A DNA stretch of 64,000 nt from Minisyncoccia bacterium (GCA_050015375.1 JBEKBN010000004.1:15188-79187), one strand, 5' to 3'. Numbered from the stretch's first letter, positions 4,517 through 64,000 are shown. The notes: generated by a model from the letters alone, not told the origin. Made by a program: numbers and translations.

Positions 4517-4545
4517 TTTTCTATAAATATTGCTACAATATCTTC

Positions 4546-5781
4546 ATGAGGTTATCCCAGCTTTTTACCCGAACTCTCCGGGAAAATCCCAAAGATGAAA
4601 CTAGCGCCAACGCCCAGCTTCTTGAGCGCGGCGGGTTTGTTTACAAAAATTCCGCCGGCATCTATTCGTATTTGCCGCTTGGCTGGCGGGTTTTCCAGAA
4701 AATTGCCGGCATTATCCGCGAGGAAATGAACGCTATTGGTGGCATGGAAATGCTGATGCAAGCGATGGTTGAAAAAAAATATCTTGACGCTACTGGCCGT
4801 TGGGATGTGCCGATCGGTTTTGAGGTCAAAGGTAAAAACGAAGACAAGGCCAACTTTACTCTCGGCTGGACTCACGAGGAGGTTTTGACCGAGATCGCTT
4901 CCAAATACGTCAACTCATACAAAGACCTGCCGTTTTACGCCTATCAGATCCAGACCAAATTCCGCAATGAGCCGCGAGCCAAATCGGGAATTTTGCGCGG
5001 CAAGGAATTCACGATGAAAGATTTGTACAGTTTTCATGTTTCGGAAGACGACCTATTCCGCTATTATGAGGAAGTCAAAGGTGCTTATCACAAAATATTC
5101 AATCGCTGTGGTTTGAAGGCGTTTTATACCATTGCCGGCGGCGGCGATTTCACCATCAGCAATACCCATGAATTTCAGGTCTTGTCGCCGGTCGGCGAGG
5201 ACACGATCTTTATCTGCCAAAAATGCGGCTATGCCGAGAACAAAGACATCTCAAAATTAAAAACCGGCGTCGGCTGTCCCAAGTGTGATGGCAAAATTGT
5301 GGAAGAAAAGGCGATCGAAGTCGGCAATATTTTTCCGCTGGGCACCAAATATTCAAAGGCCTTCAATTTGCAATTCGTTGACGAGAAAGGGGAGAAGAAA
5401 TTTGTGGTCATGGGTTCCTATGGCATCGGTATCGGCCGAGTGATGGGCGCGGTCGTTGAGGTTCATCATGACGGCGCCGGGATCATCTGGCCGGAGAATG
5501 TCGCCCCGTTCAAGATTCATCTGATCGCCCTCGAGGGCGGAGAGAAAGAAGCCGATAGGATTTATAAACAATTGAGCGAGGAAGGTATTGAAGTGTTGTA
5601 TGATGACCGAACCGAAAAAACTGCCGGTGAGAAATTTGCCGATGCCGATTTGATCGGCTGTCCGATCAGAATTCTTGTCAGCAAGAAAACTCTGGCCAAT
5701 AATTCCTTTGAACTCAAAAAACGCTCTGTTGATAAGTCGGAACTTATTAACTTGTCAAAATTAATGGAAGTGGTAGGCTAA
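4546..5781 (+). CDS. proS: Prolyl-tRNA synthetase, minimal bacterial type without the INS editing domain
   Basis: Class II motif 2 FRNEPRAKSGILRGKEFTMKDLYSFH and motif 3 GSYGIGIGRVMGAVVE are present, with an anticodon-binding C-terminus. It is only 411 aa. The Cys4 cluster CQKCGY...CPKCDG sits where the insertion domain normally is. The gene is preceded by TTGCTACAAT-N6-ATG. Confidence 0.9.
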   Translation: MRLSQLFTRTLRENPKDETSANAQLLERGGFVYKNSAGIYSYLPLGWRVFQKIAGIIREEMNAIGGMEMLMQAMVEKKYLDATGRWDVPIGFEVKGKNEDKANFTLGWTHEEVLTEIASKYVNSYKDLPFYAYQIQTKFRNEPRAKSGILRGKEFTMKDLYSFHVSEDDLFRYYEEVKGAYHKIFNRCGLKAFYTIAGGGDFTISNTHEFQVLSPVGEDTIFICQKCGYAENKDISKLKTGVGCPKCDGKIVEEKAIEVGNIFPLGTKYSKAFNLQFVDEKGEKKFVVMGSYGIGIGRVMGAVVEVHHDGAGIIWPENVAPFKIHLIALEGGEKEADRIYKQLSEEGIEVLYDDRTEKTAGEKFADADLIGCPIRILVSKKTLANNSFELKKRSVDKSELINLSKLMEVVG

Positions 5782-5918
5782 GTGATGTAGCACCTCCTTG
5801 TTTGGGTGTTGGAAAAGGGATTCCGGCGCCAGCTCCCGCAAGATGCTTGGCGAACCTTCCCGGAATCCCTCGCTCTTTTATCAGTTCGTTCATAGGACCC
5901 CCCCTCCTTTCATACCGC

Positions 5919-5953
5919 TCTCCGCCTACTCCGGAGAGCTCTTTTTATCTTGA
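5919..5953 (+). terminator. Rho-independent terminator for proS
   Basis: gctctccg-cctact-cggagagc is followed by tcttttt. Confidence 0.55.
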
Positions 5954-6023
5954 CATTATGAAGCCAACAGAGTTATTATCCCCGTAGTTCACGAACAACT
6001 AAATGAAGCAAAAGGAGGCAGAA

Positions 6024-6410
6024 ATGCCGAACGGGTACGATTATTCAAAGGAATACGGGCCGCATGATTATTCAGTGAGCCGTGATTGCAAATTTGGATG
6101 TGGATGTTTTGTGGCGTCTTCGAGCTCTCATGGACCGCTTGGATTAGATCCAATAGGCGGTGAATGCCCAGGCAACCCGAAAGATGGCATAAAAACCGGC
6201 TATGATTACGAAGTCGTAGCGGAGAGAAGAATTAGGAAGCTGGGATCAGATCTTTATAAAGCCGAAATGGAATTATCCAAGCTCCGGCACATCAAAACAA
6301 CTCCGAAAGCCAAACTCTTGGAAAGAGCCGAAACAGCCGAGGCGGATTTGAATCGATTTCATGATCTGATCGGCAAAGCAAAAGAATTCATGAATCAATT
6401 TCCCGAATAG
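6024..6410 (+). CDS. Hypothetical Cys-rich small protein
   Basis: The promoter is TTGACA-18-TATTAT at about 5951-5985, followed by an AAGGAGG SD and the start MPNGYDYSKEYGPHDY... An upstream in-frame ATG at 6003 lies inside the SD. The protein contains the motif CKFGCGC...GGECPGNP. Confidence 0.5.
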   Translation: MPNGYDYSKEYGPHDYSVSRDCKFGCGCFVASSSSHGPLGLDPIGGECPGNPKDGIKTGYDYEVVAERRIRKLGSDLYKAEMELSKLRHIKTTPKAKLLERAETAEADLNRFHDLIGKAKEFMNQFPE

Positions 6411-6426
6411 TTTCTTGATTGATACA

Positions 6427-6690: not shown

Positions 6691-6732
6691 AATCTTTGAT
6701 TGTGAATTGATATTCTGCTATCCTGAATAGTC

Positions 6733-7782
6733 ATGTTCGGCAAACTCTTCAATTTTTGGTTCAAGGACATCGGCATTGATCTTGGCACGGCCAATACTTT
6801 GGTTTATGTCCGCGGCAAAGGCATCATCATCAACGAACCCTCCATCGTCGCCGTCAATCAAAAAACCGGCCAGATCCTCGCCATTGGTCAAGAAGCCAGA
6901 AAAATGATCGGCCGGACACCCGGCTACATCACCGTTACCCGGCCGCTTGTCGCCGGCGTGGTTTCGGATTTCGAAGTCACCGAGCAAATGATAAAATATT
7001 TCATTGACCGTGCCCACGAGAAATCATTTTCATTTTTTCCAAGACCCAGGGTCGTGGTCGGCATACCAGCCGGAGTTACCGAAGTCGAAAAACGAGCCGT
7101 GGAAGATGCGACCTACAACGCCGGCGCCAGAGAGGTCTATCTTATCGAAGAACCAATGGCGGCGGCTTTGGGCGCTCGGCTACCGATCCAGGAAGCGGCG
7201 GCAAATCTCATTGCCGATATCGGCGGCGGCACGACCGATGTAGCCGTGATTTCCATGGGCGGCGTGGTGGCTTCGCGATCATTGCGGGTTGCCGGCGACA
7301 AAATGACCGAAGATATCAGCCAATATATAAGGGAAGAGCACAATATGCTCATTGGCGATTCAACCGCTGAAAATATCAAATTAACCGTCGGTTCGGCCTA
7401 TCCGCTCGAAGAAGAATTATTCATGCAAGTTCGGGGCCGAGATATGGTCACAGGTTTGCCCAAAGAAATTACCGTCGGTTCGGAAGAAATAAGAAAGGCG
7501 ATGCACCGCTCTATCCGAGCGATAATGATAGCTATCCGAAGCACCATCGAAGAAACGCCGCCCGAACTCATTGCCGATCTTTTGAACCGGAGCATTTTCA
7601 TAACTGGCGGCGGAAGTTTGCTCCGAGGCATGGATGAACTCATCAGCCACGAGACGAAATTACCGGTCAAGATCGTTGACGACCCGCTGACTTCGGTTGT
7701 TCGGGGTTGCGGCCTGGTTCTTGAGCACATTGACACCCTGAAGTCGGTTTTGGTCTGGACTCCGAAGGAAGCGTACATCTGA
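6733..7782 (+). CDS. mreB: Rod shape-determining protein MreB (actin-like ATPase)
   Basis: DIGIDLGTANT, phosphate-1 and phosphate-2 motifs, and the DIGGGTTD adenosine motif are present. The length is 349 aa. Confidence 0.9.
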   Translation: MFGKLFNFWFKDIGIDLGTANTLVYVRGKGIIINEPSIVAVNQKTGQILAIGQEARKMIGRTPGYITVTRPLVAGVVSDFEVTEQMIKYFIDRAHEKSFSFFPRPRVVVGIPAGVTEVEKRAVEDATYNAGAREVYLIEEPMAAALGARLPIQEAAANLIADIGGGTTDVAVISMGGVVASRSLRVAGDKMTEDISQYIREEHNMLIGDSTAENIKLTVGSAYPLEEELFMQVRGRDMVTGLPKEITVGSEEIRKAMHRSIRAIMIAIRSTIEETPPELIADLLNRSIFITGGGSLLRGMDELISHETKLPVKIVDDPLTSVVRGCGLVLEHIDTLKSVLVWTPKEAYI

Positions 7783-11176: not shown

Positions 11177-11242
11177 CACAGTTTGTTGAAACAAATTTTG
11201 CGGTTGTGATATAATCTTTACTTATTATTTAACTAATCTACC

Positions 11243-11698
11243 ATGGCACAGTATTTCAGCCCCGAGGGTTTGGAAAAATTGAAAAAAGAATTGGAAGACA
11301 GAAAAGGCGAGATTCGTAACGAAATAACCCGGAAAATTTTGACAGCCAAGGAACTAGGTGACTTATCGGAAAACGCCGAATACGCCGAGGCCAAAGAATC
11401 GCAGAGTTTTAATGAAGGCAGGATATCAGAGCTGGAGGAAACCATCAAAGAAGCTGTTGTTATCGGAGCCAACGGCCGGCATGACGCGGTCATAGTCGGC
11501 TCGACGGTAAAATTAAAATCTCCTCATGGAGATCATAAATTCACCATTGTCGGACCGGCGGAGTCCGATCCGGCGAGGGGTTTCATCTCGAACGAATCGC
11601 CGCTAGGTAGCGCCTTCATTGGGCATAAAAAAGGGGAAGAAGTTGAAGTCAAAACCCCGAGCGGGATTGTGAAATACAAGATCGTGGAAATATCATAG
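11243..11698 (+). CDS. greA: Transcription elongation factor GreA
   Basis: An N-terminal coiled coil with the acidic tip LGDLSENAEY is followed by a C-terminal FKBP-like domain. The promoter TTGAAA-18-TGnTATAAT lies upstream at about 11188-11220. Confidence 0.9.
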   Translation: MAQYFSPEGLEKLKKELEDRKGEIRNEITRKILTAKELGDLSENAEYAEAKESQSFNEGRISELEETIKEAVVIGANGRHDAVIVGSTVKLKSPHGDHKFTIVGPAESDPARGFISNESPLGSAFIGHKKGEEVEVKTPSGIVKYKIVEIS

Positions 11699-12378: not shown

Positions 12379-12500
12379 ACTTTCCCTTTCCTTGTCTGCA
12401 GCGCTCACCCCTATTGGTAGCCTGCATATATAATGATAGCATAATGAGATTTGCTTGTCAAGTAGATGTGTTTTTGTCGGAATTTTGATATGATTTTACT

Positions 12501-12530
12501 AGTGGCTAGTCGTTAGTGGCTAGTCGCTTC
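12501..12530. repeat. Short tandem duplication tagtggctagtcg x2 immediately upstream of lysS
   Basis: The sequence reads actagtggctagtcg ttagtggctagtcg. A related gtggctagt motif also appears at 26484-26492, upstream of another gene. Confidence 0.5.
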
Positions 12531-12534
12531 ATTT

Positions 12535-13995
12535 ATGCCACTTGAGGATATAAGACAATCAAGAATCGATAAACTTTCCAAGCTTCGCAAAGCTGGAATA
12601 GATCCCTATCCTGCCCGGGTTTTTCGGACCCACGAAATTGCCGAAGTTCTGGCGGATTTTGACGGCTTCGCGAAATCTGGGAAGAATTTGGTTTTGGTCG
12701 GCCGGGTGATGGCCATGCGCGAACATGGCGGGTCTGCATTTTTGGATTTTGTAGATGGCACAGGAAAATTACAGGCGCTTTTCAAAAAAAACGATCTCGG
12801 CGAAAAAGATTACAAACTATTTCTCGAAACCGTAGACATCGGTGATTTCATTGAAATTACCGGTACGGCTTTCAGAACTAAAAAGAACGAACCGACCATC
12901 GAAGCCAAAAAATATCGGATACTGACAAAGACGCTTTTGCCATTGCCGGAGAAATTTCACGGTCTTCAGGATGTCGAGGAAAGATTCCGCAAGAGATATC
13001 TGGATTTGCTCTTGAATCCGGAACTTCGCGAGAAATTCAAAACCCGGACCTCGATAATTAGTGAACTTCGGCGATTTCTTGACAGGAATGGTTTCATGGA
13101 AGTCGAGACGCTGACTTTGCAGACATTAGCCGGAGGCGCCAACGCCCGGCCATTCAAAACCAAAATCAACGCCTTGGACATGGACGTCTATCTTCGCATC
13201 GCGCCAGAATTGTTTTTAAAGCGGCTTTTGGTTGCCGGTTTTGAGAAGGTCTACGAATTTTGCAAAAATTTCCGAAACGAAGGCATGGACAAGGACCACA
13301 ATCCTGAATTTTCAGAACTGGAATTCTATATTGCCTACAAAGATTACGAATGGCTGATGAAATTCACCGAAGAAATGCTCGAAACAATGGTGGCGAATAT
13401 TTTCGGCAATACCAAAATTAAATACAAAGACGAGGAAATTGATTTTGCCGGACCATACAAGCGGATTTCGTTCAATGAACTTTTGAAAAAATATGCCGAC
13501 ATTGATTACGATGAAGCCAGCGAAGAAGAATTGGCCAAAAAAGCCGAAGAACTGAAAATCACCATTGAGCGGGCGATGACAAAAGGAAATATCGCCGACG
13601 AAATTTACAAAAAAGTCGTTCGGTCAAATATTATTCAGCCGACGTTCATGATAAATCATCCGCTGGAACTGTCGCCTTTGTCAAAAAAAATTCCCGATGA
13701 CCCGGAGCACGTTGCCAGGTTTCAATTAATCGTCGGCGGAACGGAGATCGTCAACGCATTTTCGGAACTGAACGATCCACTTGACCAGCGCGAGCGGTTT
13801 GAAGCCCAGCAAAAATCTGCCAAAAAAGGAAACGAAGAAGCCCATCCTTTTGACGAGGATTTCGTGGAAGCGTTAGAATATGGTATGCCGCCGGCCGCCG
13901 GTTGGGGACTGGGCATCGACCGCCTGGTGGCGATTTTGACGAATTCGCACTCGATAAGAGAAATTATATTATTTCCATTGATGAAACCAAAATAG
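12535..13995 (+). CDS. lysS: Lysyl-tRNA synthetase (class II)
   Basis: An N-terminal OB-fold anticodon-binding domain is followed by class II motifs FRNEGMD and GGTEIVNAFSELNDP and a C-terminal GLGIDRLV. Confidence 0.9.
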   Translation: MPLEDIRQSRIDKLSKLRKAGIDPYPARVFRTHEIAEVLADFDGFAKSGKNLVLVGRVMAMREHGGSAFLDFVDGTGKLQALFKKNDLGEKDYKLFLETVDIGDFIEITGTAFRTKKNEPTIEAKKYRILTKTLLPLPEKFHGLQDVEERFRKRYLDLLLNPELREKFKTRTSIISELRRFLDRNGFMEVETLTLQTLAGGANARPFKTKINALDMDVYLRIAPELFLKRLLVAGFEKVYEFCKNFRNEGMDKDHNPEFSELEFYIAYKDYEWLMKFTEEMLETMVANIFGNTKIKYKDEEIDFAGPYKRISFNELLKKYADIDYDEASEEELAKKAEELKITIERAMTKGNIADEIYKKVVRSNIIQPTFMINHPLELSPLSKKIPDDPEHVARFQLIVGGTEIVNAFSELNDPLDQRERFEAQQKSAKKGNEEAHPFDEDFVEALEYGMPPAAGWGLGIDRLVAILTNSHSIREIILFPLMKPK

Positions 13996-27714: not shown

Positions 27715-28056
27715 ATGATGATCAGTTTTGGAAATATGATGAATTATTGGGGTGGGCCGGGATATGTGGGTAGTGCCGGAGTGATCGGTTTTGTGGTAAG
27801 TATTTTGGTCACAATACTCGTGCTCTGTATAATCTTTGCGATAGTCCGGCGGGTTTTATGGGGTTGCGGTCGTTGTCATCAATGTCGGAAGATGTGGAGA
27901 CATGGAATGCACGGCATGCATGAACATGGCATGCACACGATGAACGGCGGACCTGGCTTGGGCGGTTCGGCGCTCGATATTCTCGACCAGCGCTACGCCA
28001 AAGGCGAAATAGACAAGAATGAATACGAATCAAAGAAAAAGGATCTGATGAGCTAA
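27715..28056 (+). CDS. SHOCT-domain small membrane protein with His/Met-rich segment
   Basis: One TM is followed by CGRCHQC and HGMHGMHEHGMHTM. The C-terminal SALDILDQRYAKGEIDKNEYESKKKDL is SHOCT-like. The terminator aaacccgcc-gaaa-ggcgggttt plus T lies at 28059-28085. Confidence 0.55.
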   Translation: MMISFGNMMNYWGGPGYVGSAGVIGFVVSILVTILVLCIIFAIVRRVLWGCGRCHQCRKMWRHGMHGMHEHGMHTMNGGPGLGGSALDILDQRYAKGEIDKNEYESKKKDLMS

Positions 28057-28160
28057 ATCCAAACCCGCCGAAAGGCGGGTTTTGAGTTGGGAGTTTATAA
28101 GTCAGTTGAACATATCGGACAAGGATGCTACGATAGAAATGCATATATACTACCATTAAC

Positions 28161-28910: not shown

Positions 28911-28921
28911 CCCGGCAGCCA
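28846..28921 (+). tRNA. tRNA-Gln (anticodon UUG), CCA encoded
   Basis: The cloverleaf was read directly. Acceptor arm tgccggg pairs with cccggca. The D-arm is gtgt-atttggta-acac. The anticodon arm is cctgc-cTTTGaa-gcagg. The variable loop is agaca. The T-arm is ctagg-ttcgaac-cctag. The discriminator is G, followed by CCA. The U1:A72 pair and G73 are Gln identity elements. Confidence 0.85.
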
Positions 28922-28929
28922 ATTAGTTT

Positions 28930-29927: not shown

Positions 29928-30042
29928 TTGAAAGAACCCCGCGGTTATCACAACAGGCGCACGATCTACGGATACGGCGCCTTTTAATATACCAAAAATT
30001 GTTATAGACTAACTCTAATATCGTACCAAGCGGACAGCAACA

Positions 30043-41911: not shown

Positions 41912-42226
41912 ATGAAAAAAGAGATCGAAGTTAGAAATTTTTCCGACATGGCAAATGTTCTGCATAATTTGGTGGGCGTGAATGAACTTTATCTGATAGA
42001 AATGCACATGTTAAAAAAGGGATGTATCGAAAATTGCATTTCATGTTTGAAAAAATGGAGTAATTTAATTTATTCTGGCATGAAACTCGAAATAACTGTA
42101 AATGGCAAAAAACGGTTACTTCCCAAAGAACCGTTCATAACCGTTATCAGTATTCCGCCTGATTTGCATTTTGAATTGCAATCGGAAGAGAACGGGAAAT
42201 ATTACGTTCTAACGCATTATATTTAG
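41912..42226 (+). CDS. Hypothetical protein (104 aa)
   Basis: A CAAGGAGAA SD precedes it. The terminator accgc-gcaatat-gcggt plus T8 lies at 42228-42258. No domain is recognised. Confidence 0.4.
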   Translation: MKKEIEVRNFSDMANVLHNLVGVNELYLIEMHMLKKGCIENCISCLKKWSNLIYSGMKLEITVNGKKRLLPKEPFITVISIPPDLHFELQSEENGKYYVLTHYI

Positions 42227-42267
42227 CAAACCGCGCAATATGCGGTTTTTTTTGATTAATTTATTTG

Positions 42268-42322: not shown

Positions 42323-42578
42323 TGGTGAGGATGAGGGCGTGATTGCATGGTCTGGGAACATCGGAAAGTTGTATAATGTTCTTCCTGACAACTTTCTGAT
42401 GTTCCCAGAATCCACAGAAATGAGCGAGTCAAAAAACTCGCTGGGTTTTTTGACGTCCCGAGAGGCAATGGGCGACACAGCAAATGTTTAAATATTTCAA
42501 GATTTAATAAATTGAGTGGCTCGCGCACTTGTGAATAACCCCATCGCTATTCACCAAGCGTATGCTATAATATACTTT

Positions 42579-44090
42579 ATGAGTTTTCTGTCTCTTGAAA
42601 CCGATTCAAAACCATTGAAGATCCTTTTTGTCGCCTCTGAAGCCGGTCCCTACGCCCAAGTCGGCGGTCTTGGCGAGGTCATGCGTTCATTGCCGACGGC
42701 TCTTCGCGAACTTGGCTACGATGCTCGGGTTTTTATTCCCAAATATGCTCTCATTGATACCGTCAAATACCCGCTGGAAATGGAATTGGCCAATCTCAAA
42801 ATGAGCGATTCCGAAAAAGATCCTTACGGGCTTATGGTTTGCAACGTTTTGAGCGCAAAAGATAAAGACGGCAATATCGTCGCTTATTTTCTTGAGAACA
42901 TGGAATATTACGAAAAGCGGGCGAACATCTATGGTTACAACGACGACACCACCCGCTGGCTATTATTGGCCAAGGGGTCGCTGGAATTCATCCGCCACTC
43001 GGATTGGAAACCGGATGTCATCGTTTGCTGCGATTGGCAAAGCGGGCTTGTCGCCGACCTCCAGCACAAAAATTACAAAGACGATCCTATTTTGTCGAAG
43101 ATCGCCTCGGTTTTTTCCATTCACAATCTCAAACATCAGGGCGCCTTCGATCCGCGCTCTGTCTCCGAAATTGACTACGATTCCGGCCAAGGCGAAATAC
43201 CGGATTTTTTTGACCCCAATATTTGGAAATTGAACGGCACCCGCCGAGGCATCCTTTACGCCGATGTCATCAACACGGTTTCGCCTACCTACGCCAAAGA
43301 AATATTATTGCCTGACAACGGCGAAACACTGGACAATGTTTTGAAAGAACGAAGCAATCGCCTTTTCGGAATTTTGAACGGCATTGATTACGATTATTTC
43401 GATCCTGAAACCGATAAACAGCTTGCCGCCAATTACTCTGCCGAAAATTTCAAAAAAAGGATAAGCAACAAAACCGCTCTTCAAAAAAGAGTCGGCTTGC
43501 CAGAGGACAAAGAGAAGTTCATAATTTCATTCGTTGGCCGGCTGGATAATCAAAAAGGTCTTGATCTGCTTCGGGAAATTTCCGATTCTTTGTTCGAGAA
43601 TTTGGATTTTCAGATGGTCATTACCGGTAATGGCGACAATGACCTGAAATATTATTTTCAGGACCTACAAAAAAAATATCCGACCAAGATCGGCTTGCAT
43701 CTCATTCACGATACTGAATTGAGAAAACTCATTTATGCCGGTTCTGATGTGGTGATGGTGCCGTCATTATTTGAACCTTGCGGTCTGGTTCAAATGGAAG
43801 CGATGCGTTATGGTTGTATTCCTGTAGTTCGTAAAGTAGGAGGGCTTGCCGACACGGTTATCGATTACAACCCCGACAAAGACGTCGGTACCGGTTTTGT
43901 TTTTGAAAAATACGACCGCTTCGCATTTCTCATCAGTATCGTCAGATCTTATGAGGCCTTTCGAAACAAAAAAGAATGGAACGGCATCATTAAACGGGCG
44001 ATGAGCGCCGATTTTTCCTGGCGCAATTCCGCCAAAGAATATCTCGAATTATTCCAAAACGCCATCAAATTCCACAGTGAACAGTCATGA
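42579..44090 (+). CDS. glgA: Glycogen synthase GlgA (GT5)
   Basis: KILFVASEAGPYAQVGGLGEV is the glycogen synthase N-terminal KxGG motif region. C-terminal GT-B motifs are present. The start is TGCTATAAT-N7-ATG. The ORF track extends the frame to a GTG at 42516. Confidence 0.85.
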   Translation: MSFLSLETDSKPLKILFVASEAGPYAQVGGLGEVMRSLPTALRELGYDARVFIPKYALIDTVKYPLEMELANLKMSDSEKDPYGLMVCNVLSAKDKDGNIVAYFLENMEYYEKRANIYGYNDDTTRWLLLAKGSLEFIRHSDWKPDVIVCCDWQSGLVADLQHKNYKDDPILSKIASVFSIHNLKHQGAFDPRSVSEIDYDSGQGEIPDFFDPNIWKLNGTRRGILYADVINTVSPTYAKEILLPDNGETLDNVLKERSNRLFGILNGIDYDYFDPETDKQLAANYSAENFKKRISNKTALQKRVGLPEDKEKFIISFVGRLDNQKGLDLLREISDSLFENLDFQMVITGNGDNDLKYYFQDLQKKYPTKIGLHLIHDTELRKLIYAGSDVVMVPSLFEPCGLVQMEAMRYGCIPVVRKVGGLADTVIDYNPDKDVGTGFVFEKYDRFAFLISIVRSYEAFRNKKEWNGIIKRAMSADFSWRNSAKEYLELFQNAIKFHSEQS

Positions 44091-45580: not shown

Positions 45581-45605
45581 CACTTTTATTATTTTGTAGT
45601 ATAGT

Positions 45606-46568
45606 ATGAATATGGAAAACAATTTGAACCAAAAAAGTTCGGCCCGAGATATTTTTCTGCATCTTTTGCACACGGTCATGCTCATCGTCAGCGTCATCGG
45701 CTTGCTGACGCTCCTCTTTGGTTATTTTGACGTTTTATTTCCGGATCAATTGAACTTTTATCTCTCTGATTATCTCGACCAGATCCGTTTGGCGACTTCA
45801 GTACTGGTTATCGTTTTTCCGGTTTACATTCTTATCTCATGGATTTTAGGGCGTGATTACAAAAAAGACCCGGCAAAAAGAGGCATCCGCGCCCGGCGGG
45901 TCTTTGGTTATATTACACTTTTCGCAGCAGCCATAACGGTCATCGTCGACCTGGTAACACTGATCTACAGATTTTATAGCGGTGATTATTCAGTCCAGTT
46001 TTTAATGAAAATATTGTCGGTGCTCATTGTGGCTGCGGTTGTATTCGGCTATTATCTCTGGGATATTCGCCGGGAATATGTTCAGTCGAAAAAACCGAAG
46101 CTTTATGCGTGGATCAGCTCGGCCATAATACTGACCGTAGTCATTGGTGGATTTTTTGTCGTCGGTTCGCCGGCAACCCAGCGCGACCGGAGGTTTGATG
46201 AGACCCGTATCAACGATCTTCAAACAATTCAGAACCAAGTCATCAGTTATTGGCAAAGTAAAAATAAATTGCCAGCAACACTTGACGATTTGAAAAATAG
46301 CATTAGCGGATTTGTGGCGCCGACCGATCCGCAAACTGGCGCTAGCTATGAATATATCATTTCAGGACCATTGGTGTTTCAGCTTTGCGCTGATTTCAAA
46401 ACGGATAGCAAATATGATAGCAAAAATCCGCCCGTGGCCGTGCCGATGAGCTATCCTTATAATGGCAACTGGGATCATGGCATTGGCAGGATTTGCTTTT
46501 CACGGACTATTGACCCGCAACTTTATAAAAATTCTACAAACGGCGCTCCTAAATTAATTACGCCATAA
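45606..46568 (+). CDS. Hypothetical membrane protein (DUF5671-like N-terminal 4-TM region plus extracytoplasmic domain)
   Basis: This is a 320-aa protein with an N-terminal multi-TM block followed by a soluble domain. Confidence 0.45.
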   Translation: MNMENNLNQKSSARDIFLHLLHTVMLIVSVIGLLTLLFGYFDVLFPDQLNFYLSDYLDQIRLATSVLVIVFPVYILISWILGRDYKKDPAKRGIRARRVFGYITLFAAAITVIVDLVTLIYRFYSGDYSVQFLMKILSVLIVAAVVFGYYLWDIRREYVQSKKPKLYAWISSAIILTVVIGGFFVVGSPATQRDRRFDETRINDLQTIQNQVISYWQSKNKLPATLDDLKNSISGFVAPTDPQTGASYEYIISGPLVFQLCADFKTDSKYDSKNPPVAVPMSYPYNGNWDHGIGRICFSRTIDPQLYKNSTNGAPKLITP

Positions 46569-48332: not shown

Positions 48333-49682
48333 TTAATGCAAGCCCCGCGATTTGAGTTGTAAAAGACCATATAAAACAATGGTTTTAATGATACTGCCGA
48401 CAAAAAAACCGAGGGCGAGACCTCGAACACCCATGGTTCGGGAAAAGTAATAACCGAAAACGACAGCCAGCGCCAAACCGGCCAAACTGACAAGAACCGG
48501 CGTCAAACTATCCTTCAAAGCGTAAAAACCTCGGGCAATGGATTGGACGATACATTCGGTCGGGATAGAAGCCGCGAAAATTCCCAGAGTCGCTCCGGTC
48601 AAACCGACCGCAGTGATATTGAAAGCGCCGCCGCCTAGAAATATGGAAATCAAAAAATTACGGAGCAAATAAATAACCACCGCTGCCGGAATAGCAATGG
48701 TCAAGTTGGTCAATAAAGCGAAATTCATTTCCTTTCTGAATTCACCCTGATTTTCTACCGCTGAAAGCCGGGCCAATATCGGGAACGAAGTCAACGCCAC
48801 AGTAGCGCCGATGACATTGATGGGCATACTCTCAAAATTATGAGCGAAACCAAGAATCGCGATAGAACCGGCTCCGATAGTCGAAGCGATTATTGTGAAA
48901 CCAAGAAATGTGAATTGCTCGACCGGCTGGCCGATGACTTTTGGCAGCATCAACCGGAAAAAATTCCGGTAATCGCGAGATATTTTTATTTTCGGATGAT
49001 ATCGGAAAGGATAACTAAGTCCGATAATACGCGAGACCAAATGTAACAATGCGCCGAACAATGTCCCGATAGCAGCGCCGTAAATGCCGTAATACGGAAC
49101 CAAAAAAATTATTCCGAGAATCGTGCCCAGATTGAAAAGCGCCGCCGAAATACCATACCAAAAAAATCTCTCATGGGTGACGTTGATATTGCCAAGAGTA
49201 TTGCTGATGGAAAAGATTATCGGCGAGAGAAGAAGGAGGCGCATCAGGTTGATAAAAGTATGCCTGGCTTGATCGCCGAATCCGGGCACGACCAATCGGC
49301 TAAGAAATGGCGCGAATATGAAAACCAAAATATCGCTGACCAAAACGATCAGAAGCGAGCCGTTCAAAACTGAATTGATGAATTCTTTGGCTTCGTCGTG
49401 TTTTTTGCCGGTGGTTAGGTCGGAAAATATCGGCACAAAAGCGGCCGTTAAAGCGCCGGCGACAAAAATATTCAGGATCAGATCGGGAACGGTGAAAGCG
49501 GCATTATAGGCGTCGAGAACGCTGGAAGCGCCGAAAGTGGTTGAAAACAAATGGTCTCTCAATAAACCGAACGCGTAACTCAAAGCCGTTGTAACTGACA
49601 AAATTGCCGACCCAAAAAAGAAAGTTTTTTTTGTCAGGAATCTGTCGAATATTCGGCGGAACATATACTTTGAGAATAGCAT
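48333..49682 (-). CDS. murJ: Lipid II flippase MurJ (MviN)
   Basis: This is a 449-aa polytopic MOP-superfamily protein with MurJ-typical N-terminal conserved Arg/Asp residues and overall pattern. Confidence 0.8.
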   Translation of the reverse strand: MLFSKYMFRRIFDRFLTKKTFFFGSAILSVTTALSYAFGLLRDHLFSTTFGASSVLDAYNAAFTVPDLILNIFVAGALTAAFVPIFSDLTTGKKHDEAKEFINSVLNGSLLIVLVSDILVFIFAPFLSRLVVPGFGDQARHTFINLMRLLLLSPIIFSISNTLGNINVTHERFFWYGISAALFNLGTILGIIFLVPYYGIYGAAIGTLFGALLHLVSRIIGLSYPFRYHPKIKISRDYRNFFRLMLPKVIGQPVEQFTFLGFTIIASTIGAGSIAILGFAHNFESMPINVIGATVALTSFPILARLSAVENQGEFRKEMNFALLTNLTIAIPAAVVIYLLRNFLISIFLGGGAFNITAVGLTGATLGIFAASIPTECIVQSIARGFYALKDSLTPVLVSLAGLALAVVFGYYFSRTMGVRGLALGFFVGSIIKTIVLYGLLQLKSRGLH

Positions 49683-49733
49683 AAATTGTGGATTTATGGC
49701 TAGGATAATTTTTTCGTCTGTGATATAGTTAAA

Positions 49734-51050
49734 ATGAAAGTGAAAGTAAAATCAGGTAAAAATATTTTTATAGTCGCGGTGTTCTCGATAGCGCTGGTTT
49801 TTGCGCCGTTTTTTAGTACCCGAGCTACGAATCAGGACCAGATCGATGCGCTGAATCAGCAGATCCAACAGATACAGACCCAGATCGACGCTTATCAACA
49901 ACAGATCGACACCAACAGTGGTAAAGCGAAAACATTGTCAGCCGATATCAGCCAATTGAATACCCGGATTAGCCAGCTTCAATTGGAAATAAAAAGTTTG
50001 GGCCTTTCTATTGATCAGACCGCGGCCGAGATCGCGGCGACGTTATCGCAAATTGATATTGCCAACAAACAATTGAGCATCCAAAAAGCCGCCTTGGCCA
50101 GTTACATTCAGATCTTGAACCAGGACGATCGTGAAAATCTGGCCACTATACTTTTGAAAAACGACTCATTATCCGGATTTTTCGACAGCTTGAAAGGCGT
50201 TCAGGACATTCAGAACAAAGCTGGCGCGTCCATTGTGACCATCAAGGGTCTGGAAAATGATCTGGAAAGCAACGAGGCCGACCTTGAGGGCAAAAAAAGT
50301 GATCTGGAAGACATGCGATCCATTCAAGTGGCCCAAAACAAAAGTTTGAGTTCGGATAAATCATACGAAGACCAGCTTTTAAAAACGACCAAAGGCGAAG
50401 AAGCCAGATATCAGAAATTGGTCACGGATTCACAAACCCAGATCAACGCTATCAAACAACAGATCTATTATTTACAACAAAACGGCGTTACCGCCGAAGA
50501 AGCCATCCAATATGGCGAGGAAGCGGCTAACCGCGTCGGCATCCGGCCGGCGTTCTTGATCGGAATTCTTGAAGTCGAGTCGGGTCTGGGTAAGAATGTC
50601 GGCACCGGGAATTGGGAAGACGACATGTACAATTGTTTCAAAAAACTCGGCAAAGTCAGCCAAGCCGAAGCCCAAAAAGACGCCCTTCTGCAAATAGTCG
50701 CCCAGCTCGGCTTGAACATAGACACGGTCAAAGTTTCGGCTGAACCGAATTACGGTTGCGGCGGCGCGTTGGGACCTGCTCAATTTTTGCCGACGACCTG
50801 GCTGGGTTATGAGGACCAGGTTGCTCAGATCAGCGGCCACAATCCACCTAACCCCTGGAACATAGAGGATGCGTTCATCGCGGCGGCGGCGAAACTGTTC
50901 AATGGTGGCGCCGCCACCAGAACCACTGCCGCCGAAACCGCCGCCGCCAAAACATATTTCAGCGGCAAATCGAACTGTGCCACCGCTGCCTGCAATTCAT
51001 ACGCTCGAGCCGTACTTAACAAAGCCGCGGCTATCGAGCCCAACCTTTAA
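49734..51050 (+). CDS. Secreted coiled-coil protein with C-terminal lytic-transglycosylase (SLT/lysozyme-like) domain
   Basis: A signal/TM is followed by about 230 aa of Gln-rich coiled coil. The C-terminal ...LIGILEVESGLG... segment holds the catalytic Glu, and GPAQFLPTTW is an SLT motif. Confidence 0.6.
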   Translation: MKVKVKSGKNIFIVAVFSIALVFAPFFSTRATNQDQIDALNQQIQQIQTQIDAYQQQIDTNSGKAKTLSADISQLNTRISQLQLEIKSLGLSIDQTAAEIAATLSQIDIANKQLSIQKAALASYIQILNQDDRENLATILLKNDSLSGFFDSLKGVQDIQNKAGASIVTIKGLENDLESNEADLEGKKSDLEDMRSIQVAQNKSLSSDKSYEDQLLKTTKGEEARYQKLVTDSQTQINAIKQQIYYLQQNGVTAEEAIQYGEEAANRVGIRPAFLIGILEVESGLGKNVGTGNWEDDMYNCFKKLGKVSQAEAQKDALLQIVAQLGLNIDTVKVSAEPNYGCGGALGPAQFLPTTWLGYEDQVAQISGHNPPNPWNIEDAFIAAAAKLFNGGAATRTTAAETAAAKTYFSGKSNCATAACNSYARAVLNKAAAIEPNL

Positions 51051-52351: not shown

Positions 52352-53014
52352 TCATTTGAGAGCGACCCGCAATATCAAGGCGAAAGCAATGATGAAACCG
52401 ATAATGGCAAAAGAGAGGTAAATGATCGGCCATAATCTGATGCGGGTTTTGGAAACGAGAGTGAAACGATGTTCGAAATCGTCGATGAAAGTATCGACTT
52501 TTTTGTCCAAACGCTCGGACGGAGTAACAACCGCGTTTTTGTCCGATCTTTGATCGGCAAATAATCTGATGAGATCATAGCGGCTGACGATGCCGACCAA
52601 TCTTTTGTCTTTGTCAATGACCGGGATCGGATTGACGCGGTGGTGATGGGCGAAAAGATCGGCCACTTCTTGGATCCAGGCGTCTTCCTCGACGGACAAA
52701 GGATCGGTGTTCATGATGTCGCTGACTTTCAGTGTCAATAAATTGCGAAGGTCGTCCTTGATCAAACTTTTATCTTTTTTGTAAAACCCGATATTACCCA
52801 AGATATTTATCAGTGTCGGCAAATGAACCGCGTTGCCTTGAGAGATAAGATCATATTCGGTAACGATGCCGATCAAGACGTTTTCTTTATTGACGACCGG
52901 CAGGCCGTTGAAGTTATGATCGGACAAAACCTTGGCGGCATAAACAACCGCGTCCTCTGGTTCGACGACTACAAGATTTTTGGTCATTATATCTTTGACC
53001 TTGAGATTTTCCAT
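52352..53014 (-). CDS. CBS-domain pair protein with C-terminal membrane segment
   Basis: Two tandem CBS motifs (VKDIMTKNLVVV...; VSDIMNTDPLSV...) are followed by one TM. Confidence 0.75.
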   Translation of the reverse strand: MENLKVKDIMTKNLVVVEPEDAVVYAAKVLSDHNFNGLPVVNKENVLIGIVTEYDLISQGNAVHLPTLINILGNIGFYKKDKSLIKDDLRNLLTLKVSDIMNTDPLSVEEDAWIQEVADLFAHHHRVNPIPVIDKDKRLVGIVSRYDLIRLFADQRSDKNAVVTPSERLDKKVDTFIDDFEHRFTLVSKTRIRLWPIIYLSFAIIGFIIAFALILRVALK

Positions 53015-53096
53015 CTATTACTATTTTACTTTGTATTTGTTAGTTCAACAAACAAATTGTCAACAACCGGGAAATTTTGTAGAATGTGAAATCAAG

Positions 53097-54182
53097 ATGA
53101 CCAGATCAAACATAAAAAAAACAGTCTATGTTGCTATGTCCGGAGGAGTTGACTCGTCTGTGGCAGTGGCAATTTTAAAAAAACAGAACTACAATGTAGT
53201 CGGCGTTTTCTTTAAGCCCTGGTCGCCGTCGGCGGATGTTAGTTATTGCAATTGGAAAGAGGACAGGGAGATGGCGATGCGGGTGGCATCGGTCTTGGGC
53301 ATAAAATTCAAAACCTGGGATTTCTCGAAAGAATATGGCGAAAAGGTTGTGAAATACATGATCGAATCCTACCGTGTCGGTTCAACCCCAAATCCCGACG
53401 TCATGTGTAACAAAGAAATAAAATTCGGCCTGTTTTTGAAAAAAGCGCTTTCTGAAGGGGCCGATATGATTGCTACCGGGCATTATGTACGAAAGGCAGA
53501 AATTAAAAAGCCATCAGCTATAAGCTATCGGCTATTAGCTGGTTTAGACGAAAACAAGGACCAGTCATATTTTCTCTGGGCGCTGACCCAGGAGCGATTG
53601 AAATATTGTCTATTTCCGGTGGGGGATTTAACGAAACCGGAAGTCAGAAAACTTGCAAAGAAGTTCGGTTTGCCGAATTACGACAAAAAAGACAGTCAGG
53701 GAGTTTGTTTTGTCGGTCAGCTTGATGTAAAAGAATTTTTGAAAAAATATATCAAACCGAAAACGGGGGATGTTATTTTACTTGAAACCGGAAAAGTTAT
53801 AGGCAAACACGATGGCGTCTATTATTACACCATCGGCCAAAGGCACGGACTTGATATCAAAACCGGCGGCGGCCCGTATTTTGTGGCGAAAAAGGATATT
53901 AAGAAAAATATTATTTTCGTAACCTGCGATCTGAAAAGCCAGGAATTGGCGAAAAAATATGCCGAGGTTACAAACACGAATTGGTTGAGAAATGATTTAA
54001 AAATTCCGCTTAATTGCCAAGTCAAAATCCGCTATCGAAATGTGTCCAATCCGGCAAAAATAAAAAAAGTCGGCAACAGATATTCAATTGAATTCAAAAA
54101 ACCGGTCAAGGCCATCACCCCCGGCCAGTCGGCAGTTTTCTACAAAGCCGCCGAACTCCTCGGCGGCGGGGTCATTTTATAG
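53097..54182 (+). CDS. mnmA: tRNA 2-thiouridine(34) synthase MnmA
   Basis: The PP-loop VAMSGGVDSSV is present, with catalytic Cys and a C-terminal beta barrel. The promoter is TTGTCA-17-TAGAAT at 53058-53086. The ORF track starts it earlier, at 52980. Confidence 0.9.
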   Translation: MTRSNIKKTVYVAMSGGVDSSVAVAILKKQNYNVVGVFFKPWSPSADVSYCNWKEDREMAMRVASVLGIKFKTWDFSKEYGEKVVKYMIESYRVGSTPNPDVMCNKEIKFGLFLKKALSEGADMIATGHYVRKAEIKKPSAISYRLLAGLDENKDQSYFLWALTQERLKYCLFPVGDLTKPEVRKLAKKFGLPNYDKKDSQGVCFVGQLDVKEFLKKYIKPKTGDVILLETGKVIGKHDGVYYYTIGQRHGLDIKTGGGPYFVAKKDIKKNIIFVTCDLKSQELAKKYAEVTNTNWLRNDLKIPLNCQVKIRYRNVSNPAKIKKVGNRYSIEFKKPVKAITPGQSAVFYKAAELLGGGVIL

Positions 54183-54503: not shown

Positions 54504-54977
54504 TTACCTTTTACCCAGACTCGGTAACCCGGCATTTATTAATCCAGGAATAGATTCACTCGAGAAATCATTGAACAAAATCGCATGGAATCTTTCTGGA
54601 TCATTTTTCACCAGTTCCAATACTTGTTTAAAACCAGACTCATATATTTCCATAAGCTTACTGCCACTCTTGATTTGTCGTCTCATTTCCCAAAGTGGCA
54701 GGAGAATTTCAGCAGGATTTTCATCTTTTGAACATCTTGAACCCACAAATCTATCTATCTCGATTTCCCTTGTGGGATCGACGACCAGCCACCACTCTGT
54801 GAGCCCGCCTCGAGGACCCCTCTCAAGAAAACAGGCAATTCTGAACTGGCGATACTGGAAAAAAAACCATATCGAACCCAATCCCTTCTTTGAAGGAAGT
54901 ACTCGTTCTTTGGGTGAATTTTGCCAATATCTATTTAGTTTTTCAAGGAGCGTAAACACTCTATGGACGTCGGGCAT
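54504..54977 (-). CDS. Hypothetical protein (157 aa)
   Basis: A canonical TTGACA-17-TATATA promoter and an AGGAGG SD lie on the minus strand at 54985-55025. No motif is recognised. Confidence 0.5.
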   Translation of the reverse strand: MPDVHRVFTLLEKLNRYWQNSPKERVLPSKKGLGSIWFFFQYRQFRIACFLERGPRGGLTEWWLVVDPTREIEIDRFVGSRCSKDENPAEILLPLWEMRRQIKSGSKLMEIYESGFKQVLELVKNDPERFHAILFNDFSSESIPGLINAGLPSLGKR

Positions 54978-55059
54978 AATATCCCTCCTGCGTATACTAT
55001 ATATAATATGATAGTATATGTCAATTTTTGCTAACCCAGGAGTGATTAAGCGTCCCCTC

Positions 55060-55260: not shown

Positions 55261-55369
55261 AAAAGATCAAGAGCGAGCGTTCTTCATGAAGTGTTCATTC
55301 CCCATTGTTTTTCTTGTAATATCATCATTTTAACTTTGCAATTTTGAAAAAAATTGCTACAATACATTC

Positions 55370-56044
55370 ATGAGAATTTTAGTTGTTGAGGACGAGGAAA
55401 AGCTGGCCAATTCTTTAAAAACCGGCCTTGAAAAAGAAGGTTTCGCCGTAGACGTGCTTTACGACGGTGAGTCGGCCCAGCGACGCATTGAGATGAATTA
55501 TATGGATTACGACCTGATTGTCTTGGACTTGATGTTGCCCAAGAAAGACGGTTTTGAAGTTTGCCGAAATGTCCGAAGCGTGGATATCGTGACGCCGATT
55601 CTGGTTTTGACAGCGAGAGACGCCGTTGACGACAAGGTTCACGCCCTTGATAGCGGCGCTGACGATTACATTGTCAAGCCGTTCTCTTTTCAGGAACTTT
55701 TAGCGCGGATAAGGGCTCTTCTGCGGAGGCCGGAACAAATATTGCCGCTGGAACTCCAGATCAAAGACCTGCAATTGAATTCCAGCACCCGGAAAGTTTA
55801 CCGCCGAGAAAAAGAAATTCCGTTGACCTTGAAAGAATACGGCCTTCTTGAATATCTGATGCGTCATCCGAATCAAGTCATGACCCGAGAACAAATCTTG
55901 GATCACCTGTGGGATTTCGCGTTTGATTCGTTCAGCAACGTGGTTGATGTCCACATAAAAAATCTGCGAAAGAAAATTGACGGCGAAAGCCATGACAAAC
56001 TACTTGAGACAATTCGAGGGGTGGGTTACCGGATTAAAGGATGA
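55370..56044 (+). CDS. OmpR/PhoB-family response regulator
   Basis: The receiver domain has the DD...D...K residues (LVVEDEE...VLDLMLP...). A winged-helix C-terminus is present. The start is TTGCTACAAT-N6-ATG. Confidence 0.9.
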   Translation: MRILVVEDEEKLANSLKTGLEKEGFAVDVLYDGESAQRRIEMNYMDYDLIVLDLMLPKKDGFEVCRNVRSVDIVTPILVLTARDAVDDKVHALDSGADDYIVKPFSFQELLARIRALLRRPEQILPLELQIKDLQLNSSTRKVYRREKEIPLTLKEYGLLEYLMRHPNQVMTREQILDHLWDFAFDSFSNVVDVHIKNLRKKIDGESHDKLLETIRGVGYRIKG

Positions 56045-62421: not shown

Positions 62422-62422
62422 G

Positions 62423-62929
62423 TTAATTTTGTATCGGCGGCTGACCGGGCAAAACGCGGATGAATTTTGCCGTAATTCTCCCCTGATTATCCGGCGAACC
62501 GATTATTACCACTTGATCATCTATTTTCAAATCGGTGATCTTTATTGAATTGTTTTGTTTTTCAATGCTGGTGTCATCTGATACTAAAACAACCTTTTCT
62601 TTATTGTCCGCGCCCTTAACGGTCGCGGAATCGTCGTCTAATGAAATTATAGTGCCGAAAATCCCATGGCCTCCCATCATGCCGGGATCGCGGAATAATC
62701 CCTGGCTCCCGCTGGCCATGGGTCCGCCGCCGCCAAAAACCCCCAGAACTCCTCTTTGGGGTCCGCCGAAATTTCTGTCATAATTTTCGGCCCAGGAATA
62801 TGAAAACTGAGCTTTGCGATAACCGATATAAACGCCGGCGGCAAAAACCGACAATAACGCCGCCGCTAACACAACGGCTATGGCGATTTTAACGGCCAAC
62901 TTTGATTGAAAAAATTTATTTAACTCCAT
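62423..62929 (-). CDS. Hypothetical membrane-anchored beta-rich protein (paralog of 58239-58658)
   Basis: It has a shared pattern with the ORF at 58239-58658 and a Gly-rich segment GGPQRGVLGVFGGGGPMASG. Confidence 0.45.
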   Translation of the reverse strand: MELNKFFQSKLAVKIAIAVVLAAALLSVFAAGVYIGYRKAQFSYSWAENYDRNFGGPQRGVLGVFGGGGPMASGSQGLFRDPGMMGGHGIFGTIISLDDDSATVKGADNKEKVVLVSDDTSIEKQNNSIKITDLKIDDQVVIIGSPDNQGRITAKFIRVLPGQPPIQN

Positions 62930-63326
62930 GATGCAATTTTTTTACGGAATGGGACAAAAAAACTCGGTTGTCGATGAAACTGAAAAACATTCTCAAAGCC
63001 AAAAGCGCAAGCGATAGCGAAACCAAAATTATAACTATCGAAAAAACCGGAATTGACTCCAGAATGGACGCCGCGAAATCTTTACCGTACAAGATAACGA
63101 TCCGGGGATCACTGAATATCAATTGGAAAAAATGCCAAAAATCCGATTTGGCGATCTCCCGCCCCATGGTGATGAATGCAAACCCAAAAAAGCCGACTAT
63201 GACAACGGCGATGATCGAAGATGAGACAATGTTTTTCCTGACGATCTCGAGTTTTTTCTCAAGTCCGATACGTTCAAAGATCTCCTTGAAAAGGCGGGTT
63301 TTCTGGTTTTTATTTAGTATTGCCAC
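62916..63326 (-). CDS. Small membrane protein, possible anti-sigma factor
   Basis: It has a cytoplasmic N-terminus and two TMs, and sits immediately downstream of the ECF sigma gene, overlapping its neighbour. No zf-HC2 motif is seen, so the call rests on position only. Confidence 0.35.
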   Translation of the reverse strand: MAILNKNQKTRLFKEIFERIGLEKKLEIVRKNIVSSSIIAVVIVGFFGFAFITMGREIAKSDFWHFFQLIFSDPRIVILYGKDFAASILESIPVFSIVIILVSLSLALLALRMFFSFIDNRVFLSHSVKKLHHGVK

Positions 63327-63372
63327 CAGTCATAAATACGCTTAAAACAAGGGTTTTGGTGCAGGCGAAAAT

Positions 63373-63930
63373 TTATTCGAAATCGTCTCCCAGAGCTTTT
63401 TTCAGGATGATCACGCCCCGGCGGTAACGGCTCTTGACCGTATTGAGCGGTTCCTTCAAATGATCGGCGATTCCACGGAACGAAAGCGCATCGTGGTGGC
63501 GAAGCTTGACAACCTTCCGATAATGGGTCGGCAGGTCGTTGATGGCATATTCAAGTTCTTTGCTGGATTGTTTCAATTCCAGCATTTTCAGAAACGACGG
63601 CGCTTCATCGGCGACATCGAATATTTCGTCCTCACTTTCCAATGCTGAAAATGGCAAGGCGTGATTTTTCCGCAACCAATCAAAAGCCGTGTTTTTGGCA
63701 ATTGTGAACAACCAAGATTTGAATTTTTTGGAAATATCAAATCTTTTCAGGTTTTTCCAGGCCTTGACAAACGACTCCTGAGTGACATCGGAAGCCACAT
63801 CAACATTGCCGACATAGCGCCGCGAAAAATTAAAAATCGGCGTAAGATACCGTTGGAAAAGCGTTTCCAAAGCTGTTTCGTCGCCTTTCAAATATTGGCT
63901 AACCAATTGTTCGTCCGTGATCTTTAGCAT
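63373..63930 (-). CDS. ECF-type RNA polymerase sigma factor (sigma-70 family, regions 2 and 4)
   Basis: Region 2.1-2.2 is LFQRYLTPIFNFSRRYVG, region 2.3-2.4 is ESFVKAWKNLKRF, and region 4 HTH is ALSFRGIADHLKEPLNTVKSRYRRG. The start is leaderless-type: TGGTATACT-N6-ATG on the minus strand. Confidence 0.85.
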   Translation of the reverse strand: MLKITDEQLVSQYLKGDETALETLFQRYLTPIFNFSRRYVGNVDVASDVTQESFVKAWKNLKRFDISKKFKSWLFTIAKNTAFDWLRKNHALPFSALESEDEIFDVADEAPSFLKMLELKQSSKELEYAINDLPTHYRKVVKLRHHDALSFRGIADHLKEPLNTVKSRYRRGVIILKKALGDDFE

Positions 63931-64000
63931 GTGTAGAGTATACCATAAAACCTTTAAATATTTAACAATTGTCAGATTTAGATTGTATTAAGTTTAGAAA

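Follow-up and report, generated by a model that had tools for sequence, protein, structure and literature searches.

How many nucleotides (nt) of leader can an mRNA have when the −10 box of its promoter ends only 6-8 nt before the start codon, and do genes arranged in this way form a regulon? The question is raised by a 64,000-nt stretch of DNA from a Minisyncoccia bacterium (GCA_050015375.1 JBEKBN010000004.1:15188-79187; the whole stretch is referred to as the window), for which an earlier reading of the sequence (hereafter, the original prediction) quoted eight genes with such a box and no Shine–Dalgarno (SD) sequence. All eight quoted pairs of motif and ATG are confirmed in the sequence, and none of them has an SD-like tetramer (GGAG, GAGG or AGGA) 4-12 nt upstream. 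The 10-mer before the response-regulator gene is present, although it begins at 55354, one base from the 55353 that had been given, and two of the eight boxes, at 21808 and 33209, are not canonical extended −10 elements: there the TG abuts the hexamer, which is a perfect TATAAT. We consider it quite likely that these genes give rise to leaderless mRNAs from ordinary housekeeping promoters, that is, that they represent a known architecture used as a lineage-wide habit of Parcubacteria, with no regulon involved. The eight sites are as follows (Nx, x nt between the −10 hexamer and the ATG; aa, amino acids).

4531-4548, plus strand: proS (prolyl-tRNA synthetase, ProRS, 411 aa); TTGCTACAAT at 4530-4539, N6, ATG 4546; TGcTACAAT
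55355-55372, plus strand: OmpR-type response regulator (224 aa); TTGCTACAAT at 55354-55363, N6, ATG 55370; TGcTACAAT; −35 TTGCAA with a 16-nt spacer to the −10 box
20919-20937, plus strand: bestrophin-like membrane protein (252 aa); TGTTATAAT at 20919-20927, N7, ATG 20935; TGtTATAAT; the starts of longer open reading frames (ORFs), at 20905 and 20926, fall inside or upstream of the box
21794-21810, plus strand: hypothetical protein (142 aa); TGTATAAT at 21792-21799, N8, ATG 21808; TATAAT; −35 TTGGCG with an 18-nt spacer
33197-33211, plus strand: small membrane protein (54 aa); TGTATAAT at 33195-33202, N6, ATG 33209; TATAAT; promoter overlaps the last codons of the preceding gene
38298-38312, minus strand: RarA/MgsA AAA+ ATPase (376 aa, identity confirmed by Pfam); TAGAAT, N6, ATG 38300
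42563-42581, plus strand: GlgA glycogen/starch synthase (503 aa); TGCTATAAT at 42563-42571, N7, ATG 42579; TGcTATAAT
63928-63945, minus strand: ECF-type sigma factor (185 aa, sigma-70 r2/r4); TGGTATACT at 63945-63937, N6, ATG 63930; TGgTATACT

The window has a G+C content of 45%, and the relatives of its ProRS (70-76% identity) belong to Paceibacterota, Azambacteria and Parcubacteria; by sequence, its source is a Parcubacteria-type member of the Candidate Phyla Radiation (CPR; Patescibacteria).

Box placement in the window and in related loci

To place the boxes without reference to the motif, we picked 61 coding ORFs by codon usage and, from the first in-frame ATG of each, scanned offsets of 0-40 nt, the offset being the distance from the 3′ edge of the −10 hexamer to the start codon; a TAnnnT counted as a strong −10 if it had a TG extension or matched TATAAT at five or more of its six positions. 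Strong boxes stand at offsets 6, 7 and 8 in five, two and three genes, respectively (10 of 61 first ATGs), compared with 21 matches in total at the other 38 offsets (approximately 0.55 per offset), which corresponds to an enrichment of about 6-fold. In 2,000 dinucleotide-preserving shuffles of the 45-nt regions upstream of these ATGs, the mean at offsets 6-8 was 1.45 and none (0/2000) reached the observed 10. Likewise, TGNTANNNT followed by N6, N7 or N8 and ATG occurs 6, 2 and 5 times, against 1.44, 1.79 and 1.72 expected (13 versus 4.95 in total), and 9 of the 13 matches coincide with real gene starts. One of these matches, the thirteenth (31880-31897), was rejected as a gene start, as it opens a 41-codon ORF that overlaps the next gene; the near-consensus promoter TTGACA-18-(TG)TATATT at 31859-31897 lies approximately 100 nt 5′ of a 397-aa gene at 31990 and is probably the leadered promoter of that gene, with a long untranslated leader in which no known RNA family was recognized.

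The sites share a consensus of a weak TTGnnn, a spacer of approximately 17 nt including the TG-n, TA(t/c)AAT, 6-8 A/T-rich nt and the ATG, and no column of the aligned sites is conserved beyond this housekeeping consensus. Transcription by RNA polymerase usually begins approximately 7 nt past the −10 hexamer; N6 would thus put position +1 at the A of the ATG, with N7 and N8 within the normal range. From this geometry we infer, as the original prediction did, that transcription would start at the ATG or within a few nt of it. In the mechanism that we propose, promoters of the sigma-70/sigma-A type, often TG-extended and with a weak −35, would end 6-8 nt before the first ATG of a transcription unit; the resulting mRNA would carry neither a 5′ untranslated region nor an SD and, by analogy with what is established in other bacteria, might be translated once the ribosome and initiator tRNA have bound its 5′-terminal AUG directly. 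A preference for a pyrimidine at −1, seen at 16 of the 18 window sites that we list in all (see below) and in the related loci described next (74% versus 61-68%), is a small contrast on which we do not rely.

For two of the genes, the sequence upstream restricts where a promoter could lie. The proS box comes immediately after a GC-rich terminator hairpin of 11 bp (4487-4511) with its T-run, the end of which is approximately 25 nt from the ATG, and the entire 21808 promoter sits between a terminator at 21726-21751 and the ATG; these terminators leave no space for a separate promoter. Upstream of glgA there are hairpins at 42228-42248 and 42423-42442 (terminator-like), the latter approximately 120 nt from the promoter.

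The same placement recurs in relatives. We retrieved 80 proS-centred loci (L001-L080; 1.28 Mb) from GTDB species genomes by ProRS alignment, nearly all of them from Parcubacteria or Patescibacteria metagenome-assembled genomes (MAGs), and called genes blind to the motif as non-overlapping ORFs with a minimum length of 100 aa, each starting at its first ATG, which gave 1,181 genes, including 526 operon-first or standalone and 486 operon-internal genes. Among the operon-first genes, strong −10 boxes at offsets 6, 7 and 8 number 37, 26 and 17 against a baseline of 6.25 per offset (80 observed versus 18.8 expected, Poisson p = 9e-26), and canonical TGnTAnnnT boxes number 16, 18 and 9 against approximately 1.8. 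Operon-internal genes are near baseline (10, 11 and 8), and their small bump may reflect misclassification. Boxes at offsets 6-8 carry a TG at −15/−14 in 35.5% of cases and a −35 TTG at a spacer of 16-18 nt in 35.5%, compared with 11% and 16%, respectively, of boxes at offsets 13-40; these enrichments are properties of promoters rather than of mRNAs. The peak also depends on the start codon, with 80 boxes versus 18.8 expected before ATG, a marginal 8 versus 5.7 before GTG and no peak before TTG (5 versus 9.8), as a requirement for a 5′-terminal AUG predicts. When the identical pipeline was run on 100 kb of Escherichia coli K-12, 49% of genes were preceded by SD-like motifs and only 1% had a strong −10 at 5-9 nt, compared with 13% and 18%, respectively, in the window.

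Individual orthologues show the same. Where proS is not closely behind another gene, about half of the orthologues have a TAnnnT 6-9 nt upstream, often with TG, and none of the 80 loci has an obvious SD in the 20 nt before the proS start. Searches of the proS-centred loci with the other candidate genes (tblastn) gave informative orthologues only for MreB and the PMT_2 glycosyltransferase (the RseP matches did not align from the N terminus): the mreB box is kept 6-11 nt upstream in the closer orthologues, and the glycosyltransferase has TGgTATAAT at offset 7 in L012 and TGaTATACT at offset 7 in L023.

A box that precedes starts at a fixed distance could alternatively belong to the mRNA, that is, act as a non-SD ribosome-binding element or A/U-rich enhancer on leadered transcripts (group B-like, as in Bacteroidota). 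SD use in this lineage is so low that some non-SD mechanism must exist: SD-like motifs precede only 30 of the 486 operon-internal genes, about the flat background rate of the offset profile, and in the 12 nt upstream of these genes A and T predominate and G is scarce, position −1 being T in 52%. However, an element of this kind should precede internal genes as well, whereas the peak belongs almost wholly to first genes and the internal composition is diffuse. Moreover, neither the TG at −15/−14 nor the TTG at a 16-18-nt spacer has a role in an mRNA, and the terminators before proS and 21808 would leave the promoter of a leadered transcript no space. We therefore regard this explanation as improbable and retain leaderless transcription from housekeeping promoters.

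Regulon, start codons and chance

The original prediction took the boxes as a defined promoter class, possibly a regulon, and pointed to the exact duplication of one 10-mer before two unrelated genes. A dedicated regulon or alternative-sigma class marked by the TTGCTACAAT-type box and read by a specific factor would indeed account for the identical 10-mers before proS and the response-regulator gene, the upstream regions of which agree at approximately 22 of 27 positions, including TTCATGAG. However, conservation across the sites does not extend beyond TG-n-TAnAAT and a weak TTG −35, and the functions are unrelated (tRNA charging, cell shape, lipid II flipping, glycogen synthesis, replication-fork rescue, signalling and unknowns). 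The same promoter type also lies 12-40 nt upstream of the SD-led or otherwise leadered genes at 4232, 6024, 11243, 31195 (TTGACA-18-TATTAT) and 54977, with even better −35 boxes, so the class is defined by geometry and not by a distinct motif. Four of these comparators are detailed here.

4159-4234, plus strand: 76-aa orphan; TTGACT-17-TATAAT, leader of approximately 38 nt, GGAGG-N5-ATG 4232
5950-6026, plus strand: 128-aa orphan; TTGACA-18-TATTAT, leader of approximately 38 nt, AGGAGG-N5-ATG 6024
54975-55024, minus strand: 157-aa orphan; TTGACA-17-TATAGT, short leader, AGGAGG-N6-ATG 54977
11186-11245, plus strand: greA; TTGAAA-18-(TG)TATAAT, 27 nt before ATG 11243, leader of approximately 20 nt, no SD

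Among orthologues of proS, the position of the box is kept but its sequence varies freely (TGTAAAAT, for example, in the 71%-identical L001, and TGATATTCT, TGCTACTAT and others elsewhere). Nor does the duplication carry much weight: across 61 extended −10 sites from unrelated genomes, full 10-mer identity has p = 0.0078 per pair, so that 0.28 identical pairs are expected by chance among the nine canonical window sites and one pair is unremarkable. The shared 22-mer ATTGCTACAATANNTTCATGAG had one match only in metagenome contigs of the JGI, a collection that excludes the window's own contig and is therefore uninformative on the rest of the genome, and this match is in an unrelated high-GC contig, L081. 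There (Ga0116226_10024299, 4436-4457, minus strand) the 22-mer, ATTGCTACAATAttTTCATGAG, precedes a 160-aa ORF with TGCTACAAT-N6-ATG geometry; the match is a coincidence, yet it illustrates how widely the architecture is spread. A regulon is on these grounds very improbable.

The spacing between box and ATG might also be an artefact of annotation if start codons had been mis-called. Alternative upstream starts exist at 20905, 21802, 33185 and 42516, and pipelines disagree, some holding forms of 255, 524 and 62 aa in place of 252, 503 and 54 aa. However, the ProRS N terminus (M[RK]xSQLFTKT) begins exactly at the start codon in all 80 orthologues (GTG in two), and this conservation from residue 1 validates the proS start; the MreB N terminus is likewise conserved among orthologues. 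The boundaries of Pfam domains are in keeping with the proposed starts (the first matched residue is 3 for Response_reg, 8 for Peptidase_M50 and 11 for MreB, and the bestrophin-like match is offset by two residues), and the first-ATG test, which is blind to the motif, is still strongly significant. The NCBI pipeline uses GeneMarkS-2, which models leaderless starts, and an exact-sequence look-up in the NCBI annotation of this MAG returned the 252-, 142-, 503- and 54-aa forms. In all four ambiguous cases tested (20935, 21808, 33209 and 42579), the annotated start is accordingly the motif-adjacent ATG, as the original prediction had anticipated for re-annotated starts. Mis-called starts are thus a very unlikely source of the pattern.

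Finally, chance −10 look-alikes, for which one could cite the AT-richness of intergenic DNA, a TAnnnT frequency of approximately 3% per offset upstream of starts and the many consensus matches in a promoter scan, are refuted for the class as a whole and barely credible, because the frequency at offsets 6-8 is well above that at flanking offsets and in shuffles of the identical regions, and because the sharp peak recurs in 80 other genomes together with the TG and −35 features and is absent in the E. coli control.

Further sites and Shine–Dalgarno use

Ten further sites of the same kind bring the list to 18 when second ATGs and short-gap genes are counted.

20853-20870, minus strand: PMT_2 glycosyltransferase (517 aa); TGtTAAAAT, N6, ATG 20855, the second ATG of the ORF
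3057-3074, plus strand: RseP-like M50 peptidase (361 aa); TGgTATGCT, N6, ATG 3072; −35 TTGAGG
6716-6735, plus strand: MreB (349 aa); TGcTATCCT, N8, ATG 6733; −35 TTGATT
49662-49681, minus strand: MurJ (443 aa); TGcTATTCT, N8, ATG 49664, the second ATG of the ORF
53012-53028, minus strand: CBS-domain protein (220 aa); TAAAAT, N8, ATG 53014
45600-45614, plus strand: DUF5671 membrane protein (318 aa); TATAGT, N6, ATG 45612, the second ATG; −35 CTGACA with a 17-nt spacer
34440-34454, plus strand: 498-aa repeat protein, weaker site; TAATAT, N6, ATG 34452
667-681, minus strand: S-adenosylmethionine-dependent methyltransferase (223 aa from ATG 669); TATATT, N6, ATG 669; longer ORF forms begin upstream of the box
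2951-2965, minus strand: GH15-like protein (430 aa), weaker site; CATAAT, N6, ATG 2953; −35 TTGAGT with a 17-nt spacer
30590-30605, plus strand: GNAT acetyltransferase (170 aa), weaker site; TATATT, N7, ATG 30603

No SD-like tetramer lies 4-12 nt upstream at any of the 18 sites, and 9 of the 18 have a TG exactly one base 5′ of the hexamer. Approximately 15-16 of them belong to genes that are first in their transcription unit, that is, about 40% of such genes in the window (approximately 38), and the remaining three (30603, 33209 and 45612) are only 22-31 nt behind the upstream gene. Divergent gene pairs with spacers of 69-123 nt are found at 669/793, 2953/3072, 20855/20935 (79 nt), 49664/49734 and 53014/53097. 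Two near-leaderless variants stand beside these: at 49725-49742, TGaTATAGT ends 4 nt before ATG 49734 and 10 nt before an in-frame GTG at 49740, and at 53077-53099, TTGTCA-17-TAGAAT ends 11 nt before ATG 53097, with a predicted leader of approximately 5 nt.

Several points weigh against leaderless transcription as a general description. The leaderless call is a prediction from promoter geometry. The three short-gap genes could be operon-internal and transcribed by read-through; some of the weak boxes (CATAAT, TAATAT and TATATT) in AT-rich spacers may be there by chance, and this could hold individually for the sites at 2953, 30603, 34452 and 669; and offsets of at least 8 nt (6733, 21808, 49664 and 53014) may yield leaders of 1-3 nt, so that these mRNAs would not be strictly leaderless. 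In addition, gene calls in the 80 loci are crude, which makes the leaderless and SD fractions approximate, and each locus holds too few genes for the two fractions to show bimodality or anticorrelation.

The original prediction also held that other genes in the window use strong GGAGG SD sequences. Such genes exist (approximately 8-9 of approximately 66, with SD-led starts at 793, 4232, 6024, 29472, 31195, 38448, 41912, 54977 and possibly 58658), but the statement was too broad, as most of the remaining genes show neither signal. Genes with a strong SD (AGGAGG or GGAGG, N5-N8) are almost all small and without a Pfam match, several of them having a near-consensus TTGACA −35 (spans 4232-4462, 6024-6410, 29472-29927, 31195-31806, 38448-38681, 41912-42226 and, on the minus strand, 54504-54977); SD use thus seems to be concentrated in lineage-specific or possibly acquired genes. 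Searches for the 3′ end of 16S rRNA, and with it the anti-SD, found none in the window or in the 80 loci; the few strong AGGAGG-N5/6-ATG starts indicate that the organism probably keeps its anti-SD. Neighbouring genes in the 80 loci are packed very closely: of 505 junctions, 75 overlap as ATGA and most others have a gap of 1-5 nt, and such internal junctions without an SD suggest re-initiation or coupling rather than SD pairing.

Taking these observations together, it is possible, although we propose it only tentatively, that the Parcubacteria/Minisyncoccia clade has an almost SD-independent regime of initiation. If so, many transcription units (approximately 40% in the window) would be expressed from leaderless mRNAs that begin with ATG only, internal genes would depend for their translation on re-initiation or on unstructured A/U-rich sequence, and SD sequences would persist on no more than a few genes, mostly small and lineage-specific. 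Such a regime would be the functional side of two reported traits, the loss of the 16S anti-SD motif and the reduced ribosomes of the CPR.

Other features of the window were noted in passing. A low-GC stretch at approximately 28000-32000 (40% versus 45-47% elsewhere) begins at tRNA-Gln (28846-28921), the sole RNA gene in the window, and contains the GNAT gene at 30603 (assigned by Pfam), GIY-YIG nuclease-like (30043) and MazG-like (30278) genes recognized by eye, as well as orphan genes, of which several are SD-led; the stretch is possibly a genomic island. A 249-aa ORF (28161-28910) that overlaps the tRNA gene is probably spurious. The gene for a class II tRNA synthetase of the Asp/Lys/Asn type (12478-12537, ATG 12535) is leadered: its TGaTATGAT box lies near 12486, and TAGTGGCTAGTCG occurs as a tandem pair (12500-12527) just before the ATG, with no SD and no Rfam match. 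The 498-aa protein (34452-35948; weak T2SS-T3SS_pil_N match) has an internal duplication with a period of approximately 597 nt (copies at 34823-35084 and 35417-35681), in which a 196-nt stretch is 95% identical, pointing to recent duplication.

Relation to known leaderless systems

Among Parcubacteria, no more than 48% were found to carry the anti-SD motif CCTCCT in a published survey (Tsurumaki et al. 2022, PMC9297842); the low SD use in the window and in the 80 loci fits that survey, in which leaderless mRNAs were not treated. Our literature search found no report of leaderless mRNAs in Patescibacteria, CPR, Saccharibacteria or Parcubacteria. With the sites described here, the lineages in which leaderless mRNAs are used heavily would come to include a large bacterial radiation that is uncultivated and has reduced genomes. 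The sites would also mean that start codons in the CPR need to be called in a leaderless-aware manner, given that callers based on the longest ORF or on the ribosome-binding site (RBS) add spurious N-terminal extensions here, and the genetics now emerging for Patescibacteria could draw on them for native modules of promoter and start (TGnTATAAT-N6-ATG).

The signal itself is familiar. TA-led genes were defined from it, with TAtaaT in mid-GC genomes and, in low-GC genomes, an added TG peak that replaces the −35 (Zheng et al. 2011, PMC3160421), and GeneMarkS-2 assigns a genome to group C when its first genes have a Pribnow box 6-8 nt from the start and occur alongside genes that are RBS-led (Lomsadze et al. 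2018, PMC6028130), a group of 1,028 of 4,769 bacteria, mainly Actinobacteria and Deinococcus-Thermus (PMC6028130). The window resembles both in that the box is 6-8 nt before first genes, no SD is found there and RBS-led genes coexist; it differs from group C in its very low SD use, whereas SD sequences are typical for leadered and internal genes in that group. Extended −10 promoters of low-GC Gram-positive bacteria combine a TG one base 5′ of the hexamer with a weak −35, and TG is enriched 3-fold at the boxes at offsets 6-8 in the 80 loci, although the canonical TGn is present at only about half of the window sites.

Leaderless transcription from this geometry has been confirmed by differential RNA sequencing (dRNA-seq) or reporters in Deinococcus deserti (PMC4007540), Deinococcus radiodurans (−10-motif; PMC12340547) and Mycobacterium tuberculosis (PMC3898074), and in the mapped transcriptomes TANNNT and GGAG motifs are both found within 20 nt upstream of ORFs, as they are here. 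Whereas those systems have dRNA-seq or reporter proof, the window sites are known from their sequence. The boxes also differ in kind, being nearer to the full TATAAT and often TG-extended here, compared with a bare TAnnnT in high-GC genomes, and the −10 peak is at ATG only, whereas leaderless starts in D. deserti are AUG or GUG (PMC4007540). Although this lineage is one for which we found no earlier report, what is present in it is neither a new mechanism nor a regulon, but a well-known architecture.

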